A stretch of DNA of 64,000 nucleotides from Camelus dromedarius (taxonomy: Eukaryota): the NCBI RefSeq assembly GCF_036321535.1, contig NC_087436.1, positions 71,674,001-71,738,000 of the forward strand. The letters run 5' to 3'. The position numbers and the translations under genes are program-made. Positions 9,579 to 42,193 of this stretch are shown piece after piece (position 1 is the first letter of the stretch; each line of letters opens with the position of its first letter). The notes under the pieces were generated by a model that was not told where the DNA came from, ran no database searches, and saw only the letters and a list, made by a program, of their open reading frames with translations.

Positions 9579-10879
9579 ACAGTCAACTAATATTTGACAA
9601 GGAAGCCAAAGAATACTCATATGAGGAAAGGATAGTTTCTTCAATAAATGTTGGAAAAACTGGATAACCACATACAAAAATATAAAATTGGACCCCTATC
9701 TTATACCTCTCTCCAAAATTTATTCAAAATGGATTTAAAATATAAATGTAAGACCTGAAACTGTAAAACTCCTAGAAGAAAACATAGAAAAAAAGCTCCT
9801 TGACAATGCTCTTAGCAATGATATTTTTGGATATGACACAAAACCCACAAGTAACAAAAGGAAAATTAAACAAGCAGAATGACGTCATACTAAAATTTTT
9901 TGCACAGCAAAAGAAACAACCAACAAAATGAAAAGGTAATGTATGGAATGGGAGAAAATATTTGCAGGTCATGTATCAGATAAGAGGTTACTATCAAAAA
10001 CATATAAAGAATTTATACAAATAACAAAAGCAATCCAATTAAAAAATGAGTAGAGAAACTGAACAGACATTTTCCCAAAGAACAAATACAAATGACCAAA
10101 GGTAACTATAAAGAGCTTACTATCAGTAATCACCAGGGAAATGCATGTCAAAACCATAGTAAAATATCACCTCACACCTGTTAGAATGGTTATTATAAAA
10201 AAAAACAAGAGATAAATATTCTTGAGGATGTGGAGGAAAGGGAACCTTCATGCACTGTTGATGGGAAGGTAAATTGGCAAGACACTATGGAAAACAGTAT
10301 GGAGGTTCCTCAAAAAATTTAAAAAAAAAACTACCATATGATCTAGCAATTCTTCTGCTGGGTATATATCCAAAGGAAACTAAAACCGGATCTGAAAGAG
10401 GTACATGAACCCTCATGTTCACTGAAGCATTATTTACAATAGCCAAGATATGGAAACAACCAAAGTGTCTGTCAATAGATAAATGGTTAAAGAAGATGTA
10501 TATAAGCAATGAAATATTACTCAGCCAAGAAAAAGAACAAAATCCTGATATTTGCAACAACATGGATGGTCCTTGAGGACACTAGATAAATGAAATAAGT
10601 CAGGAAGAGAAAGACAAAGAATATATGATGTCACTTATACATGGATAGGACTTACCTATATTGTATCATAATTAAAACATAATACTGTACTACATACTTG
10701 AAAGTTACTAAAAGAATAGATCTTAAATTTTGTCACAGAAAAGAAATGATAATTATGTGATGTGACAGAGGTTTTAGCTAATGCTACTATGGTAATCACA
10801 CTGTAATATATAAATTTATCAAATCAACACTTTGTACATCTTAAAGTTACAAAATGTTATATTCAATAAAGTTAAGGGA
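9579..10879 (+). mobile_element. 5'-truncated L1 (ORF2 C-terminus plus 3' UTR, L1MA-like) nested in an older L1 ORF1 fragment (about 9335-9565 and 10893-10930)
   Basis: Decayed ORF2 sequence (ttcaataaatg...ggaaaaactggata; cacctcacacctgttagaatgg); 13-bp TSD aaaaattaatcta at 9566-9578 and 10880-10892. Confidence 0.88.
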
Positions 10880-20349: not shown

Positions 20350-23110
20350 TTATAATTTATCTTTTATTGAGGTATAGTTGACTTACAATATGTAAGTTTC
20401 AGGTGTACAACATAGTTGATTCACAATTTTCAGATTATACTCTATGTATACTTATTATAAAATACTGGCTATATTCCCTGTGCTGTACAATATAGCCTTG
20501 TAGCTTATTTATTTTATACATAGTAGTTGTACCTCTTAATTCCCTACCCCTATTTTGCTACTCTCCCTTCCCTCTCCCCACTAGTAACCACTAGTTTGTT
20601 CTCTACATCTGTGAGTCTGTTTCTGTTTTGTTGTATTCACTAGTTTATCTTTTGGATTCCACATATAAGTGATAACATACAGGATTTCTCTTTCTGTTTG
20701 ACTCATTTCACTAAGCATAATATCCTCCAAGTCCATCCATGTTGTTGCAAATGGCAAATTTTCATTCTTTTTTATAGCTAAGTAGCATTCCACTGTATAT
20801 ATATACATCTTTATTCATTAATGTGTTGATGGACACTTAGGTTGCTTGCGTATCTTGGCTACGGTAAATAATACTGCTATGAACATTGGGTTGCACGTAT
20901 CTTTTCAAATTAGTGTTATAGTTTTCTCCAAATATATAGCCAGGAGTGGAACTGCTGGATTACACGGTAGTTCTATTTTTAATCTTTTGAGTAAACTTCA
21001 TACTGTTTCCATAGTGGCTGCACCAATTTACATTCCCACAGTATACAAGGGTTCCCTTATCTCCACATCCTCAGCAACATTTATTATTTGTGGCCTTTTT
21101 GATGACAGCCATTCTGACAGGTTCAAGGTGATATCTCGTTGTTTTGATTTGCATTTCCCTGATGATTAGCAACACAGCATCTTTTCATGTGCCTACTCGC
21201 AATTTGCATGTCTTCTTTGGAAAGCTGTCTATTCAGGTGTCTGCCCATTTTTAAATTAGGTTGTGTGGTTTTATTTTTTAGATGTCGAGTTGTATGACCT
21301 ATTTATATATTTTGGATATTAACCCTTTGTTGGTCATATCATTTGCAAATATTTTCTCCCATTCAGTAGGTTATCTTTAGATCTTGCCAATGGTTTCCTT
21401 TGCTGTGAAAAGGCTTTTAAGTTTAATTAGCTCATATTTGTTTATTTTTTTGTTTTGTTTCCTTTGACTTAGGAGACAGATCCAAAAAAATATTGTTACA
21501 ATATATGTCAAAGAGTGTTCTGCCTATGTCTTCTCCTAGGAGTCTTATGGTTTCCAGCCTTACATTTAGGTCTTTAATCCATTTTGAGTTTATTTTTGTA
21601 AATGGTGTGAGAAAATGTTCTAATTTCATTCTTTTACATGAAGATTATTTCCAGTTTTCACAACACCACTTACTGAAGAGACTGTCTTTTCTCCATTGTA
21701 TATTTTTTCTCCTTTTGTCATAGAGTAACTGACAGAGTAACTGTCATAGACTAGCACATAAGTGTGTGGGTTTATTTCTGGGCTTTCTAGTTCTGTTCCA
21801 CTGATTGGTCTGTTTTTGTGCCAGTATTAAACTGTTTTGAACACTGTAGTTTTGTAGTATAGTCTGAAGTCAGGAAGCATGATTACTGCATGATTCCTTC
21901 AGCTCTGTTTTTTTTTTTGTTCAGCTCTGTTCAAGATTGTTTTGGCTATTCAGGGTCTTTTGTGTTTCCACACAAATTTTTAAATTATCTGTTCTAGTTC
22001 TGTGAAAAATGCCACTGGTATTTTGACAGGGATTGCACTGAATCTGCAGGTTGCCTTCGGTAGAATGGCCATTGTAACAAACTAATTTTTCCAAACCATG
22101 AACACAGTATATCTTTTTATCTGTTTGTGTCATCTTCAGTTTCTTTCACCATAATCTTAACATTTTCTGAGCATAGGTCTTTTACCTCCTAGGTAGGTTT
22201 ATTCCTAGGTATTTTATTAATCTTTTTGATGCAACTGTAAATGGGATTATTTCCATAATTTCTTTGACAGTGTGTAGCTAGTATATAGAAATGCAACAGA
22301 TTTCTGTGTATTAATTTTGTATCCTGCAACTTTACCAAACTAATTAATGAGCTCAAGTAATTTTTTGGTAGTGTCTTCAGGATTTTCTATGTCATCTGCA
22401 AACAATGACAGTTTTACTCTTTTTCAGTTTAGATTCCAGTCTGTTATACCTAGGACTTCCAATAATATGTTGATTAAAAGCAGTGAAAGCAGGCATCCTT
22501 ATCTTGTTTCTGTTCTTAGAGGAAATGTTTCCAGTTTTTCACCACTAAGTATGATGCTGGCTGAAGGCTTATCATACATGGCCTTTATCATGTTGAGGTA
22601 TGTTTACTTTATATCCATTTTCTAGAGAGTCTTTATCATAAATAGATGTTGAATTTTGTCAAAAAGCCTCTTCTGCATCTATTGAGATGGTTTTTTGTTA
22701 TTTTATTCTTTATTAACATTGCATATCACATTGAATTGATTTATAGATCCTGAACCATCCTTGTATACCTGGGGTAAACCCACTTGATCATGGTGTATGA
22801 TCCTTTTAATGTATTGTTGGATTTTGTTTGCTAATACTTTGTTCATCAATGATAGTGTTCCATAATTTTTTTTTTTTTTTTTTTGGTGATACCTTCTTCT
22901 GGTTTTGGTATCAGTGATGCTGTCTTCATAGGATGAGTTGAGAAGTATTCCTTCCTCTGCAATTTTTTTTTTTTTTTTGCAATTTTTTATAATAGCTTAA
23001 GAAGGTGTTAACTCTTCTCTAAATGTTTGGTAGACTTCACCTGTAAAGCCACCTGGTCCAGGACTTTTGTTTGTTGGGAGTTTTAAAAAAATTACTTATT
23101 TAATTTCATT
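20350..23110 (-). mobile_element. About 2.8-kb 5'-truncated L1 (ORF2 3' half plus 3' UTR)
   Basis: Minus-strand ORF fragments are L1 ORF2: MKLEHFLTPFTKINSKWIKDLNVR, and AIKKNENLPFATTWMDLEDIMLSE; many frameshifts and stops. Confidence 0.95.
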
Positions 23111-30990: not shown

Positions 30991-31053
30991 GCTGTAATTT
31001 TTCTTTTTTCAAACCCATTTTGCTGTGATGAGATATTCCACTTTAAACTTTCT

Positions 31054-31196
31054 TTTTTTTTAATTGCTTTTTTTTTTGAGGGGGGAGGTAATTAGGTTTA
31101 TTCATTTATTTATTTTTAGAGGAGGTACTGGGGATTGAACCCAGGACCTCATGCATGCTAAGCATGCACTCTGCTACTTGAGCTGTATCCTCCCCA
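31054..31196 (-). mobile_element. tRNA-derived SINE (Vic-1-like)
   Basis: Reverse-complement SINE body with T-rich tail; TSD cactttaaa(c/t)tttct at 31039-31053 and 31200-31214. Confidence 0.9.
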
Positions 31197-31544
31197 CCTC
31201 ACTTTAAATTTTCTAATTTTTCTGACCATTGCTTTCCTGTGACTTGGGAATATTGTGATATCTGGTAATGCCGACATAGGTTGTATTCTTTTAGCGCAGT
31301 GATAATGTCATTGCATAATATATACAATGTTTTGCCATCTAATTCAGTAACAAAACCCACGCTTTACTGTGCCTTAAAAGCGTGACATCTGAAATTCACT
31401 TTTCTTATTTTGACTGGATATGAACTAGTAATAAAAAATTAATAAAATGTGGCCAAAGGACAGTACACATGGCACTTGAAACACTATCAAGTTATAACTG
31501 CACCACTGAGATGTGTACTGTGCTGAGCAGTGTGAGCACTTTAA

Positions 31545-31852: not shown

Positions 31853-32668
31853 ACATTGGTTCTCATTATTCATGGTAGGTTTGCTCTATAAAGGCACTGG
31901 GAACACCGACCCATCACTCCTAGAGGAAATTCAGAGTTAGGTTCCTACAAGCCTTTGGTCACAATACCAATTTCAGTAACCAATCAAGATGTAACCATGT
32001 CGGTGGGGAGGGTATAGCTCAGTGGTAGAGTGCATGCTTAGCATGCATGAGGTCCTGGGTTCAATCCCCAGTACCTCCATTGAAAGTAAATAAAAACCTA
32101 ATTATTGCCCCCTCAAAAACAACCAAAAAAAAAAAAATTAAAAAAAATAAAGAGGCAGACATAATACAGTTTAATTATTGAAAAAAAAAAAAGAGAGAGA
32201 CATAACCACGTCCTATATGTTTGTGTTTAAAGACATCTTATTTAGTATGTATTTTGATTCATTAACATTGAACCCCTGGCCAACAGCACTGTAGTTCACA
32301 CTTGCATGAAGCTTACCTCACACACATACTTCCTCTGTGAGGACATCACAGACTTCTTCCACTTAGTGCTCAGAGGCCATCTTAAAAAACTATAAAAATG
32401 AGAAAAACATGGCACTAAACAGACCACAAGAAGGACACATAAACACAATGTCCTTACAGTATGAGAGCTGAAACAAAAAGGCAGCGTCACTTTGTTTGAT
32501 CCCTGCTGGGAATGTGTACACTGGGTGGGCTCAAACTTTTTTCTGCTCTGAGTTTGAAGGCACAAGTCTGCTAATAACTGCAAAAGCATTGTGAGCATCT
32601 TACAAATAAATTTTAGTGAGTAGGTGACTTCATAAATATTAAACTACGCATAATGAGGACCAGCTGTA
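31853..32668. mobile_element. TcMar-Tigger MER82-like DNA transposon relic
   Basis: Degenerate terminal inverted repeats (ggttctcattatt / ataatgaggacc) and MER82-type internal motifs; split by a SINE. Confidence 0.75.
32005..32197 (+). mobile_element. tRNA-derived SINE (Vic-1-like) with extended bipartite tail, inserted in MER82
   Basis: Near-consensus SINE body; TSD agatgtaaccatgtc (31987-32001) and agacataaccacgtc (32198-32212). Confidence 0.9.
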
Positions 32669-35299: not shown

Positions 35300-35976
35300 C
35301 AATACTTAGTGCTATCTTTATTCCAGACTTCTTAAATTATAGAAAAAGGAATGAACACTTTCTGCATTCTTTCAGAGCAGGGTTGGGAAGCAATACCACC
35401 GACCATATTACTTTCTTATACGCATGGACTACTCTATTGCACGTTTCTCAAGTCCATTTTTTAAAAAATCACACATTAACTCATCATCAACGTATGTTCC
35501 ATTAAGATAGTATTTATTAACTAGGAATTACCAGAAGGCCTTCAGGGGGTCAATAAAGGTCTCCATGATGCGAGTTCCAGGACTTTTCTCAAGAGAAAAC
35601 CATGGCTTTATCAAATACTCAAGCAGGTATATGATCTTCCACACCTCCAAAATTTTAAGAATCACCTCATTGGATGCTCTTATTTTGTAAAACTTTTCTA
35701 GTCTTGTTCTCCAAGGTTCTGGCACCTCTAATAAGTTGTAATTTTATAAACAGGGCCCAACACTTTGATTCCCCTCTTATATTCTTAGTATATAATTAAA
35801 CATACATTTTTAGCACTTAAAAGATTTTAAGTGTCCAAATATATCTTAATCCACAGTACTTCACAGGGCTCATGATTTTAAACAAAAGCAAATTAAATCA
35901 TATCTGAATTTCTCGATGTTCTAAATACATTAAGAATGAATACACTGTCATTGTTCCAAAATTACTAGAAAGTATG
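35300..35976 (-). other. COX18: Probable COX18 3' UTR (3' end uncertain)
   Basis: Follows the stop codon; minus-strand AATAAA at 35513-35518 and 35317-35322. Confidence 0.6.
35513..35518 (-). terminator. Candidate COX18 polyadenylation signal AATAAA
   Basis: Plus-strand tttatt about 460 nt downstream of the stop codon; lies inside one arm of the inverted repeat. Confidence 0.5.
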
Positions 35977-36150
35977 TCATTTTCTTGAACTGAACTTGGC
36001 ATGCAAGGCAGCAAAGAGGTCCTTATAAGGAGTGTGTGAATCTGACTTGGTTAACGGTATTCGGCAAAGTTGGCGAAATCGAGGGGAACGCAGCAGCAAG
36101 TTCTGTGAAAGGCCCATGAAGCTGGAGCATAACCAGTACAGAGCAATCGA
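35977..36150 (-). CDS. COX18: COX18 coding exon 6 (terminal), 174 nt including TGA
   Basis: Acceptor CCACAG|TCG; encodes SIALYWLCSSFMGLSQNLLLRSPRFRQLCRIPLTKSDSHTPYKDLFAALHAKFSSRK*. The six exons join into an open 1014-nt frame (337 aa), or 1011 nt (336 aa) with the short exon 4. Confidence 0.96.
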   Translation of the reverse strand, partial: SIALYWLCSSFMGLSQNLLLRSPRFRQLCRIPLTKSDSHTPYKDLFAALHAKFSSRK

Positions 36151-37119
36151 CTGTGGAGAGAAGAAAGGACATGAATGTTAGCATCTCTCCATTCTCCAAG
36201 GACATCAAGTCTAGAGACAGGCAGGCAATAAAAAAGAAAATTGCAATCTCTGTAAACAAAAGTACACCAGGACAGAACAAGACCTTCAGTGGCTACTAGA
36301 TACCTGTGACAGATCTAATAGATAGGTAAGAAAGCTGAAAGGAAGACCAAAAACCAAAAGAAACCAAATGAGAGTATTCATGACAGAAATGAATAACGGA
36401 GAAGAGCTCCCAGGCAGAGGCTCAAGAGAGATCTCACCTCTCTTCTTTGGCAATTAAGTATACTTCTCCCTCACCAAGAGTTCTGACAAGCTGCTATATT
36501 GCAGGGAGGCTACAGGGGGCACGGCCATTTATGATGGCAAACCTAGCCTCCCTAGACCTCATTTTCCCTCATACAGTCATGTATCTTGCAAATTTTCCCA
36601 GTAACCAGTTTTTTAGTATAGTCAGGAATGCATTACCTTTGCCATTTCCTGAGACAAACAGTCTCAGCATTATCTTCAGTCTTCTTTTTAACTACCAGAC
36701 TGATTTATTTAGGTCAAAGACCAAGTCCTGCAGCCTCTTAAAACATTCCCATTCATACATCTTTCCCAAACTTTTCTTTGGCATCAGAAGGTAATCAGGC
36801 TGTTGGAGAACCAGTATCACATACAATTGAACAGCTGCTCAAACTCAGAACTTGATGTTTGAGGACAGCTCATGAAATTTTTGGCACAAACAGCATACTG
36901 GTGCTCCCTGGAAACCAGTGAACTCTTTAAAGGTCCTAAATGTGACAATTAAAAAGAAATGTGATCATTTCCCCTTGATTTTACACTGCAGACTTGAAGC
37001 TAGGCTCTTTTCCTTGGTTATATTATTTGATCACAATTTTTTTTAATGGAATAAAACTGATTTTGATATGGGAAAAAAAATAAAGAAATAAAGGTAATCA
37101 GGTCCCACAGGAAAGACCA

Positions 37120-37530
37120 AGTGGTGGTTGAGTCCAGGTTCTAGAGTCAAACTGCCCGAGTTTGAAATCTATTTATTTAACTTTGGGAAAGTTATTTTTC
37201 TTGTTTCAGTTTCATCTTCTATAAAATAGGGACAAAAAAAAAAAAAAAAAAAAAAGTCCTGAAACTCACATCATGGAGGACTTTAATGACCCTCCCCGAA
37301 GGCCTTCTGGTAATTCCTACTTAATAAATATTATCCTAATGGAGTATACATTGATGATGAGTTAAAGTGTGATTTTTTAAAAAACAGACTTGAGATACAT
37401 GTAATAGAGTAGTCCATGCGTGTAAGAAAGTACCTAATATGGTACTTACTTCAAAGGGATGCTGTGAGGAATAAAAGAGAAAATTCACGTATAGCGGTAG
37501 GCATGGTATGCGGCCCATATTAAGCACTTG
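37120..37530 (+). mobile_element. MIR interrupted by the inverted COX18 3' UTR copy
   Basis: MIR core tcagtttcatcttctataaaataggga (ending about 37232) resumes as gtacttacttcaaagggatgctgtgagga (about 37442). Confidence 0.8.
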
Positions 37531-37584
37531 CATTTGTTCGAGAACAGGTTTTTCAGGGCAGAAAGCAAAGCATATTCAAAAGCA

Positions 37585-37830
37585 GATTAGCATAATAGTT
37601 AAGAGCAAGTGTCAAACTGCCTGGATGTGTGTTAAGACTCTTCCACTTAACAGATCAGTGACCCTGGATGAGCTACTTAACCTCTCTGTGCCTTGGTTCC
37701 CTCATCACTAAAGTGGAGATTATAATAGCACCTACTTCACTACATTGCTGGGAGAAATATATGCACTAATATATGTAAATGATTTAAATCACTGCCTGGC
37801 ACAATGTTAATGCTGAACAAATATTAGCTA
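37585..37830 (+). mobile_element. MIR
   Basis: gtgaccctggatgagctacttaacctctctgtgccttggttccctcatc...gcacctacttca. Confidence 0.8.
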
Positions 37831-39370
37831 TCATCATCATCTTATTCACAAAGTGGACAGTACTGAGCCCAGCGACGTCAGACTACAAACTGCCTACAAA
37901 ACATCATTCTTCTTCCTTAGTAATAAAACCCTAATTTTCAGAGGATATACTGTCACCTGGGAAAAAAAAAAAGCAAAAAAAAGCTGTACTTTCCAGCTTC
38001 TTTTGCAGTTAGGTATGGCCACATATTTAAGATGTAAGCACAAGTGTTTGGTGGGACATCTGGCAAGGGTCCTGAGAGGGGCTGACTATACTTGAAGCAC
38101 CGTTTTACTATTCTTACAAGATAACAAGCTTCAACAGCAATCATGACTATTCTGTGGCCTTCAAGGCAGAAATTACAGGCTGTGGATTATGCAACATTAA
38201 GAGAGAAGCAGGCTGTGTCTCTCCTGTCTTCACAGGGATGTCACATCAGCTCTACACTAAACTGTCTAATTCTGAATTTCCTATATTTGAAAGAATGAAC
38301 TTTTGGGTATTGAAGACACTGTTTTTTTAGATCTCTGTTACTCACTTTGAACTCAATCTCTCACTAAAACGTGACTGCTCCTATTATATTTGATCTGGAG
38401 GTTTTCTCAATGATAACTGGTATTATTTCCCTTAGAAATGTAGTAAATTTGTATTGCTCTGCTTTAACCAGAGTATTTTACAACAACATTATTATTACGT
38501 GAAAAGTACTATAATAGGCACTTATTATTTCACTAATTCTCAGACATTATGGTGTTTATTTTAGAAATGAGAAAACGTATTTATTTTACACAAGTTTAAT
38601 GACAGTATTATGTCTAAGTGATAGCTTAAAAACATTTAACATTTAATTGACATTTGTGAGGCTGAAAACACACTATTTCAGATTCCTGAGACAAGTCATA
38701 TGAAGTACTTTCATACAAGCTGATGTAACTCTAACTACCAGCAACAAATGACGACTACTTTATGGTCTATGTGTTGGCTCTGAGCAAAGACAGATATACC
38801 TGATACAGCTTTAGCCATCTCAGCACTGAAGTATCCACGGAAAATAAGTAAAAGGCTAAAAATACGAAATAACTGCAAACATAACATTTCTTTTTCTATT
38901 TCTATAAAAGTTTAATTACGTACAAATGGAGACAAGTATACTTGTTTCATAAAGTTGTTATGAGCTTAAATAATATTACATATGAAACCATATGGACCTA
39001 GCACAAAGTTTTGTTTCTTTTCTAAGTGCTAACTTCCTTGGCCCAGACTATGAAGACAGAAAGAACTCAATATATCAATTAATCAAACAGAGAAATACTA
39101 TGTTCATAGTACTGTGCAAGGTATTTTGCAAGATTGAAAAAAAAAAAAAGAAAAATGGAAAAAAGGAGTTTGATTTAGAAGAATTAAGACATATTCATAT
39201 AAAGAAAGTTTAACCAATCCCAAGAAATATTCAGACATCACTTGGTGATAGGGACAGTAGAAACCAGTAAGGGGTTGAGTGGTCAGAGGAAGCTCAATAG
39301 AAGAGGCAGAATACAGTCAGAGAAGGTTTATATTTAGCACATGCTTCACACAATGCTGGTGCTTACTCAC

Positions 39371-39969: not shown

Positions 39970-40220
39970 CAGCACAACTCAATGATTATGAACACAGACT
40001 GTACACCCAAACTATCTTGGTTCATGAGGCAGCCCTGCATTTAGTGGTTATGTGTTTTTGTGCAAGTTACTTAAACTTTCTGCTCCTCACTTTCACCACT
40101 TTAAAGTGGGGGTAATAAAAGTACCGACATCACAGCATTACTGTTAAGAATTAAATGAGTTAATTCAAATAAATTCTGTACAGCTGTGCCTGGCACATGG
40201 TGAATGCTAAGTAAGAATAG
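39970..40220 (+). mobile_element. MIR
   Basis: gcaagttacttaaactttctgctcctcactttc...aattaaatgagttaat...gtgcctggcacatgg. Confidence 0.75.
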
Positions 40221-40673
40221 ATTTTTATTAAACTTATCTAAGCTGGGTTGTTAGATGGAATAAAGTAAAGACTAGAGGATTGACATTAATTCACTGTGAC
40301 CTGTTACCACTTCCTTCTTTCTAAGAAATATTCACTAAGTACCAACCACGTTCACAGAACTGTGCTGGTGCTCTTAGGGTAACACACCTAGGCTACACAT
40401 AAAAAACTTTACCCAAGGCCTTAAGAGTATCATCTTCATTTTCCTCGCCTGAAAGAAATAAGTGTATTAGATTTCCCAAAGAGAGATCAGTAGATATGAG
40501 GTCTGCGAAAGCTCAACTGAGATAGATCTTTCCTAAGATTTCTTCTAGTTCAGAGTCTATATTCTACTCAGTCTGAGAACAGTTCTTTATGGGATTAAAG
40601 GCATGCTTTCCCTAAACTGCTAAGTAAAGTAGCACAGGATAATGGTTAAAACATGGCTGGGATGTCATATTTT

Positions 40674-41329: not shown

Positions 41330-41454
41330 CTCCACTATTAATAAATTGATGACACCCACGGAGACAGGCAGAATCCAAGTGGAATCCAGGGCAGTGAGGT
41401 CAGGAAACCACAGGACCCCACCAGTAGCTAACTGCTCCTGAACAGAAAAACCTG
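41330..41454 (-). CDS. COX18: COX18 coding exon 4, 125 nt (122 nt if the second AG of the CAGCAG acceptor is used, starting at 41451)
   Basis: Acceptor TTTCAG|CAG|GT; encodes (A)GFSVQEQLATGGVLWFPDLTALDSTWILPVSVGVINLLIVE with the OXA1-family LWFPDLT motif; donor GAG|GTCAGT. Confidence 0.96.
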
Positions 41455-42193
41455 CTGAAACATTTTTATACATAAAACAAAGGAATTTCTAAAAATAGCA
41501 GAGGAAAATAATTCTAAGAAGGTGTCCCTCACCCTGAAGACTTGCATTTTTTATTCAGGTTATTTTCATTCTATAACATAAATTAGTCTTTCCTGTTCAG
41601 AGAAAGAGGCAAGAGATTCACAGACAATAGAGATATGAAGCAGTAATCTTTTCAGACTTAAATTTAAAAAATTATTTGTCCATAGGCTGCTTTCTTTCAA
41701 ATCTACTGATTACTTTCTGGTTAGCAATGCCTTTAAATGAAAGTAAAAAAACAAACACTTTAGTTTATAACCTTTCTTAATTAAAGTTTACATTTACAAC
41801 TGTGAAATATTTTCTGGTCTCTTAAACTTAGAAAAAATTCTTGGCCAGGAAACTGAATTATGGAATTACAACACTAATTTTATTATGATCTCCAAGAAGT
41901 CGCACTAGTGATGTCCTTCCTAGATTCATTTGTTTTCTCAACACAGCTAGTTTGCTTACACTTAATGTTTTAAATTCCATACCCTTGTAAGGGAGATAAT
42001 AAAGAATATATTCTAATTATCATAAGTATAGGTGTTTTTAATTTTTTTGCTTGGTTTTTTGTTCTTCTCTTTAGAGTACAAAGACAATGTACTTATATAC
42101 AAACTGCACTTATATGTACAGTGTACTTATGTACAAAGACAATGTACTTAGAGTACAAAGAACTTATTTGGGGAAACAGATTTCAATAACTAC

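Follow-up and report, generated by a model that had tools for sequence, protein, structure and literature searches.

An inverted copy of the COX18 poly(A) region in the last intron of the dromedary gene: probably a tolerated accident

Introduction

A duplex between the last intron and the 3′ UTR of a pre-mRNA can suppress terminal splicing, to judge from SPINK1 Alu_Ins (Masson et al., 10.1101/2020.01.30.926790), in which an Alu in the 3′ UTR pairs with Alus of intron 3 and the amount of normally spliced RNA was reported at 4% of that of a flipped control. The locus described here, in the COX18 gene of the dromedary (Camelus dromedarius), resembles SPINK1 in that the arms lie in the intron before the 3′ UTR and in the 3′ region, the last acceptor is bracketed, a long stem is predicted and a block of terminal intron removal has been proposed. 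The SPINK1 arms are Alus of about 260–270 bp, the UTR insertion is new and pathogenic, and its effect was shown by flipping (10.1101/2020.01.30.926790). In COX18, by contrast, the arms are unique sequence of 190 bp, the insertion is an old one in the intron, one arm is the gene's own poly(A) region, and the effect is predicted.

Long-range RNA pairings near 3′ ends have been described more widely (PMC8052449). The Nmnat stem (PMC2724269) and the human PCCRs (PMC8052449) likewise involve intramolecular pairing over a distance, around the acceptor of a terminal exon and close to a poly(A) signal, and the COX18 arms, as this type of structure requires, are predicted to pair stably in the pre-mRNA. 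As presented in those reports, the known elements are short boxes recognized by their conservation among species, and in Nmnat there is a choice of two acceptors, whereas the COX18 arms are long, are paralogous copies of one another and give no indication that their pairing is conserved. Inverted repeats also flank a splice acceptor within a few kilobases in loop-out skipping between inverted Alus (PMC13019027). That study compares skippable and constitutive exons with intronic Alus, and the terms "last exon" and "terminal exon" have 0 occurrences in its available text; unlike those exons, COX18 exon 6 is terminal and could be skipped only with another last exon. In human, 5.1 million duplexes have been predicted, of which about half a million are non-repetitive and 4,597 of those are edited; the edited non-repetitive ones have a median length of 144 bp and loops of about 2000 nt (PMC11838218).

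As regards origin, inverted, nearby, microhomology-flanked insertions exist as germline variants (MMB-TI; PMC8421209). The likeness to the COX18 insertion lies in the inverted copy of a nearby template, the apparent short microhomologies at the junctions and the germline origin. The differences are that the templates in that study lie within 100 bp, the distance within which MMBSearch calls events, and that its inserts extend up to the read length, whereas the COX18 insert is longer, its template is 1.7 kb away, and its junctions are aged, one of them with an expanded A-run. A literature search, conducted mostly at the level of listings, returned no paper on the inverted element, and none on A-to-I editing in camels or the choice of poly(A) site in COX18.

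Results

The host gene and its 3′ end

The window analyzed is a stretch of 64,000 nucleotides of the dromedary genome (contig NC_087436.1, positions 71,674,001 to 71,738,000 of the forward strand), and all coordinates given below without a contig are positions within it. The host gene, which we take, as the first-pass annotation did, to be COX18 of the YidC/Oxa1/COX18 family, lies on the minus strand and was assembled by in-silico splicing from six exons with GT-AG ends (45425-45048, 44515-44415, 42357-42194, 41454-41330, 39478-39371, and 36150 onward). The spliced frame encodes 337 residues, with residues 281-337 in exon 6. A spliced stretch of a retrocopy of the gene matched the Pfam family 60KD_IMP (PF02096) with E 9.7e-7 and 29.3 bits, below the cut-off of 35, and the same family was carried by all 30 of the 30 atlas hits (the best, 0.93). 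None of the four single exons of the host gene that were searched matched Pfam, and a PDB search with exon 3 gave no match. At exon 4 there is a tandem NAGNAG acceptor (41451-41456, minus strand), of which the retrocopy uses the first AG.

The retrocopy, on contig C26 (L003:1476-3054; ~6617830-6619410), is a full-length processed pseudogene with the six exons joined, 91–98% identity per exon, single-base gaps relative to the gene in exons 2 and 3, an exact exon 5-6 junction, a non-templated poly(A) tail and an 11-nt target-site duplication. It represents one germline molecule, and as such is silent on the efficiency of processing. The junction with its tail places the cleavage/poly(A) site of the gene at 35487, and the AATAAA at 35513-35518, 26 nt before that site on the minus strand, is therefore a signal that was really used. 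Exon 6 (35487-36150, minus strand) thus consists of 57 codons (36150-35980), a stop codon and the 3′ UTR, and is preceded by intron 5, the last intron (36151-39370, 3220 nt). Another AATAAA is found some 200 nt beyond the first on the downstream side, and longer 3′ isoforms of COX18 are possible given this sequence.

The inverted repeat

Self-BLAST of the window aligned 37252-37443, in intron 5, with 35587-35402, at the 3′ end of the gene, on the minus strand over 192 columns, with 87.0% identity, E 2e-60, 19 mismatches and 2 gap openings, and a separate repeat search of the window also recovered the ungapped core of this pair. The spacer separating the arms is 1665 nt and contains the exon 6 acceptor (36150), the 57 codons and the stop. 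The first-pass annotation, made from the sequence alone, had described reverse-complement arms of about 190 bp with some 19 substitutions and two indels, a spacer of about 1.66 kb holding the acceptor, coding part and stop of exon 6, and an AATAAA at 35513-35518, and all of this was confirmed. Its label of the downstream arm as 3′ UTR was about half right: of the 186 bases, 101 (35487-35587) belong to the mRNA recorded by the retrocopy, being its last 101 nt, and the other 85 (35402-35486) lie beyond the cleavage site.

This pair is the strongest of three inverted pairs in the window (at least 50 bp, no more than 5 kb apart). An inverted repeat of at least 100 bp within 5 kb was found in 0 of 20 background stretches of 10 kb, taken at round coordinates from contigs C1-C6, a piece size that undercounts widely spaced pairs; these stretches yielded one 66-bp multi-copy pair and one 50-bp palindrome. 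The arm pair is far beyond chance expectation.

An assembly artefact was considered and, on the evidence of word shares, rejected. Between 95 and 97% of the sampled words of 35380-37480 were present in 6 of the 24 public runs listed, from 4 studies, where the intronic arm makes up about 10% of the stretch and one of the six runs may be the source of the assembly; since the six runs hold this share of the words and the intronic arm is about one-tenth of them, an assembly error is unlikely. Three RNA-labelled runs of one study held 67–75% of the words, a share in which DNA carry-over is indistinguishable from pre-mRNA; exon 6, at 37% of the stretch, is by itself too little to account for it.

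Two further inverted arrangements were observed in the window. Young multi-copy SINEs at 31053-31198 and 32002-32137, 84% alike, 804 nt apart and with a predicted energy of -212 kcal/mol, are situated past the poly(A) site, some 3.4 kb downstream, and would be relevant only in read-through RNA. A pair of about 1.05 kb (9608-10645 and 20658-21708), 70% alike and 10 kb apart, consists of putative old LINE pieces.

When the 2.3-Gb genome was searched with the sequence of the downstream arm, three candidates were obtained and all three scored, namely the two arms and the C26 retrocopy, while the neighboring old SINE, searched with the same tool, gave 40 scored matches of 104 candidates. All these counts are lower bounds; the search skips very common words and scores only the best candidates. 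The additional genome searches revealed no arm copy beyond these three; in one of them, 10 of 13 matches covered only the A-run described below and a few adjoining bases. A search of Rfam returned one match, with E 0.94, far under its gathering score. That the arms arose as two separate insertions of a multi-copy repeat is hardly credible given matches limited to the arms and the retrocopy, even though a search that omits very common words and scores only the best candidates leaves some room for it. The first-pass impression that the arms were no recognized transposon is borne out, and an inverted transposon pair of the kind formed by inverted Alus was likewise rejected, as neither arm is multi-copy in these searches. 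The repeat is real, well defined and locally unusual, because it is built of unique sequence and coincides precisely with a poly(A) site that was used.

Origin of the intronic arm

The intronic arm (37252-37443) carries the COX18 sense sequence on the plus strand and is therefore antisense in the pre-mRNA. Its flanks belong to an ancient SINE, which presumably is a MIR. MIRs are reported as the main SINE of camelids (PMC8605555). A profile of this SINE, built from 16 aligned segments of 14 genomic loci, matched the left flank (37178-37234, plus strand) at profile positions 48-110 and the right flank (37442-37526, plus strand) at positions 117-201. With the arm cut out in silico, the joined flanks gave one hit to the profile (44.7 bits, E 7.7e-15), and the profile found no significant match in either arm. 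In pairwise comparison the joined flanks scored 65 against a SINE copy at 40000-40300 (shuffles, 42), and 38 against the SINE next door, which is not above the shuffles (maximum 43). The insert thus interrupts a previously continuous site, and since the flanks match consecutive parts of an older SINE split by the arm, the comparison identifies the intronic arm as the derived copy and the downstream arm (35402-35587, minus strand) as its template.

The two junctions are aged and show what may be microhomology, a shared A-run on the left and 2 nt on the right. On the left, the sense copy is preceded on its 5′ side by a run of 22 A residues (37234-37255, plus strand; U22 in the pre-mRNA), at a point at which the A-run of the template is short. 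On the right, template and target share the dinucleotide GT, and about six profile positions of the target were lost. No target-site duplication was found at the junctions. An L1-mediated retrocopy of COX18 mRNA was rejected, because the A-run lies on the 5′ side of the sense copy and the copied segment continues for 85 nt past the cleavage site at 35487, and the target-site duplication is lacking as well. Additionally, a palindrome with a 7-bp stem and a 6-nt loop (37427-37446) covers the right junction and spans a 4-nt difference between the arms; it could be a snap-back scar or a chance feature. Within the intronic arm, an ATTAAA on the minus strand (37282-37287), about 26 nt before the U22 tract, comes from an AATAAA on the other strand of the template and is one of nine hexamers in intron 5.

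Direction of copying, low copy number and lack of a target-site duplication are seen directly, and the event resembles an inverted templated insertion of the MMBIR/TMEJ type. In a single old event, some 190 bp spanning the COX18 poly(A) site would have been copied, in inverted orientation, into a SINE 1.7 kb away, the most likely mechanism being a template switch guided by microhomology in the course of repair or replication, and the A-run probably grew later by slippage at the A-rich junction. A different route, in which a run-through or longer COX18 transcript was the source and its reverse-transcribed copy was captured at a nearby break, leaving the A-run as a remnant, is unlikely. It would account for the A22 run abutting the copy, and the C26 retrocopy indicates that the gene was retrotransposed in the germline. 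However, the A-run is at the 5′ and not the 3′ end of the sense copy, no target-site duplication is present as compared with the 11 nt of the C26 retrocopy, a landing place 1.7 kb from the source suggests a local DNA template, and runs of at least 20 A or T are common (six in 200 kb).

Age of the insertion and evolution of the arms

The arms differ from each other at 19 of 186 sites (corrected distance, 0.110), as compared with 23 of 490 sites between the retrocopy and the gene (corrected distance, 0.048), which is a 2.3-fold distance (P 0.012). Over the 101 bases shared by the three sequences, private changes numbered 9 in the intronic arm, 3 in the UTR and 2 in the retrocopy (9 versus 2, P 0.033). 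The insertion is probably older than the C26 retrocopy, unless the copying was error-prone; errors of this kind could lengthen the intronic branch and exaggerate the age of the insertion. As the arms are about 2.3 times as diverged as the retrocopy and the exon 5-6 junction of the latter is exact, correct splicing of these exons and cleavage appear to have continued after the insertion; by this comparison, the germline made normally spliced and cleaved mRNA at a time when the duplex could form and was more nearly perfect than it is today. If neutral change is assumed to proceed at 1.5-2.5e-9 per site per year, the insertion would be roughly 22–37 million years old. This estimate is younger than the split of camels from other even-toed ungulates, dated at 55–60 million years ago (PMC3514880). 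A search for orthologues among metagenome contigs with the exon 6 peptide gave at least 595 pattern matches, of which one was confirmed, a distant relative with 54% identity (L031), too remote to serve for the intron.

Selection for pairing was looked for in the substitutions. On the pre-mRNA strand, 11 of the 19 arm substitutions break a pair and 8 give G-U, the latter among 14 transitions, of which half are expected to do so by chance (P 0.40); two of the three UTR changes that postdate the retrocopy break a pair. The UTR arm has changed at the same rate as the rest of the UTR (5 of 101 versus 18 of 389 sites, P 0.80); within the arm, the retrocopy differs from the gene at 35504, 35510, 35560, 35571 and 35580. 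No bias toward G-U or toward kept pairs was found among the 19 substitutions, in what is a paralogue comparison of low power. The arms seem to drift apart like neutral DNA, and none of these weak tests points to selection. In the retrocopy, a single sequence, there was no A-to-G change attributable to editing: the one A>G in the arm is also present in the intronic copy, and therefore represents a later change in the gene.

Predicted duplex and its timing

Folding of the pre-mRNA strand, an equilibrium prediction that leaves out proteins and kinetics, gave -265.7 kcal/mol for the two arms. In the full 2.1-kb segment, 180 arm-arm pairs were predicted, with helices of up to 29 bp. The AATAAA hexamer is fully paired in this model, the predicted pairing probability being 1.0 for the hexamer and the cleavage site and 0.95 for the downstream element. 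Transcripts truncated at 35590 had 0 predicted arm-arm pairs; the number rose to 66 at 35520, immediately ahead of the hexamer, to 96 when the cleavage site was reached and to 180 on the run-through transcript. The masking of the poly(A) signal put forward in the first-pass annotation is consistent with this prediction, in which the duplex covers the hexamer, the cleavage site and the downstream element and starts before the hexamer is made; because 66 pairs are predicted before the hexamer is transcribed, masking during transcription is physically possible. The exon 6 acceptor is outside both arms: it follows the end of the intronic arm by 1102 nt, and another 563 nt separate it from the start of the downstream arm.

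Discussion

The inverted repeat of COX18 is probably a chance inverted copy that has been tolerated as an accident, with transient pairing, possible editing, normal processing in most molecules and slow decay. In nascent RNA that still contains intron 5 the arms probably pair briefly, as the folding predicts, and may then be edited by ADAR. In most transcripts intron 5 would already be committed or removed and cleavage would be normal, so the duplex would be tolerated and decay neutrally, as the retrocopy and the substitution pattern suggest. The first-pass annotation had allowed for a neutral relic as the alternative to its main proposal, and it is this alternative that fits better. Several points weigh against it. 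The tests for selection have low power, with 19 changes; the duplex is still predicted to be very strong, in energy, number of pairs and length of helices; the similar layout of SPINK1 left 4% as much normally spliced RNA as was obtained with the flipped control (10.1101/2020.01.30.926790); and the insert is longer and farther from its template than the events called by MMBSearch (PMC8421209).

The duplex might also have a real effect without being selected. A SPINK1-like damper of this kind would delay intron 5 removal or cleavage, give somewhat less mRNA or a more distal poly(A) site together with editing, and would have been compensated in the lineage; we regard it as the foremost alternative, though rather unlikely. 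A large loss of a respiratory-chain assembly factor would be selected against, the acceptor lies outside both arms and is made 563 nt before the downstream arm, and the retrocopy bears no A-to-G change attributable to editing. Most of the non-repetitive human duplexes that have been predicted have no recorded editing either (PMC11838218), yet the length, pairing and loop size of the COX18 duplex are within the range of those that are edited (PMC11838218). The damper is further favored by the predicted growth of pairing along the nascent transcript, from before the hexamer to the run-through form, by the second AATAAA downstream and by the precedent of SPINK1 (10.1101/2020.01.30.926790). A selected kinetic switch, in which splicing of the last intron and the choice of poly(A) site are linked through the duplex and the signal is freed once intron 5 is removed, was the central proposal of the first-pass annotation, and we find it very unlikely. 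The elements at the center of the copied segment, namely the poly(A) signal, the cleavage site and the downstream element, are all paired in the model, and conserved stems acting at terminal exons are known in Nmnat (PMC2724269) and FGFR1OP2 (PMC8052449). However, there is no bias toward kept pairs, the UTR arm has not been slowed, and the arms are about 10% diverged, as compared with Nmnat boxes described as almost invariant across Drosophila species (PMC2724269). Normal splicing and cleavage after the insertion also speak against the switch, as does the lack of a second last exon among the features identified; for the same reason the suggested looping-out of exon 6 did not hold up, no alternative downstream last exon having been identified as its destination.

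The insertion could act through its U22 tract rather than through pairing. The tract, followed by UAG, forms a candidate acceptor for a cryptic last exon (37172-37218, minus strand) with first base 37218, eight codons, a stop and an AATAAA at 37172-37177; this short alternative exon, defined from sequence only, would yield a protein without the 57 residues of exon 6. The site has 18 pyrimidines out of 20 and an AG-free zone of 38 nt, and by a crude score it ranks second among 107 YAG sites of intron 5, tied with the real exon 6 acceptor. It is nevertheless one of five such acceptor-like sites in the intron, where its hexamer is one of nine, and a function of this kind is highly improbable. The boldest reading, which we hold to be quite unlikely, is a built-in checkpoint, in which a 180-bp duplex would hide the poly(A) signal for as long as intron 5 is present and cleavage would be held back until its splicing. 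Slow splicing would then lead to the distal site, to editing or to the cryptic short last exon provided by the same insertion.

If such a checkpoint were true, COX18 would offer a lineage-specific, transposon-free origin of a coupling between splicing and polyadenylation, with the retrocopy as a dated witness. If the duplex is active in any form, the locus would allow the competition between splicing and RNA structure at a poly(A) signal to be tested cleanly in a natural setting, because one of the arms is intron DNA that is dispensable, and its deletion or inversion would leave the mRNA unaltered. If the tolerated accident is the right reading, as seems probable, a potential duplex of 180 bp over an active poly(A) site would have been tolerable for millions of years, and this would temper the lesson of SPINK1 that such a layout silences a gene.
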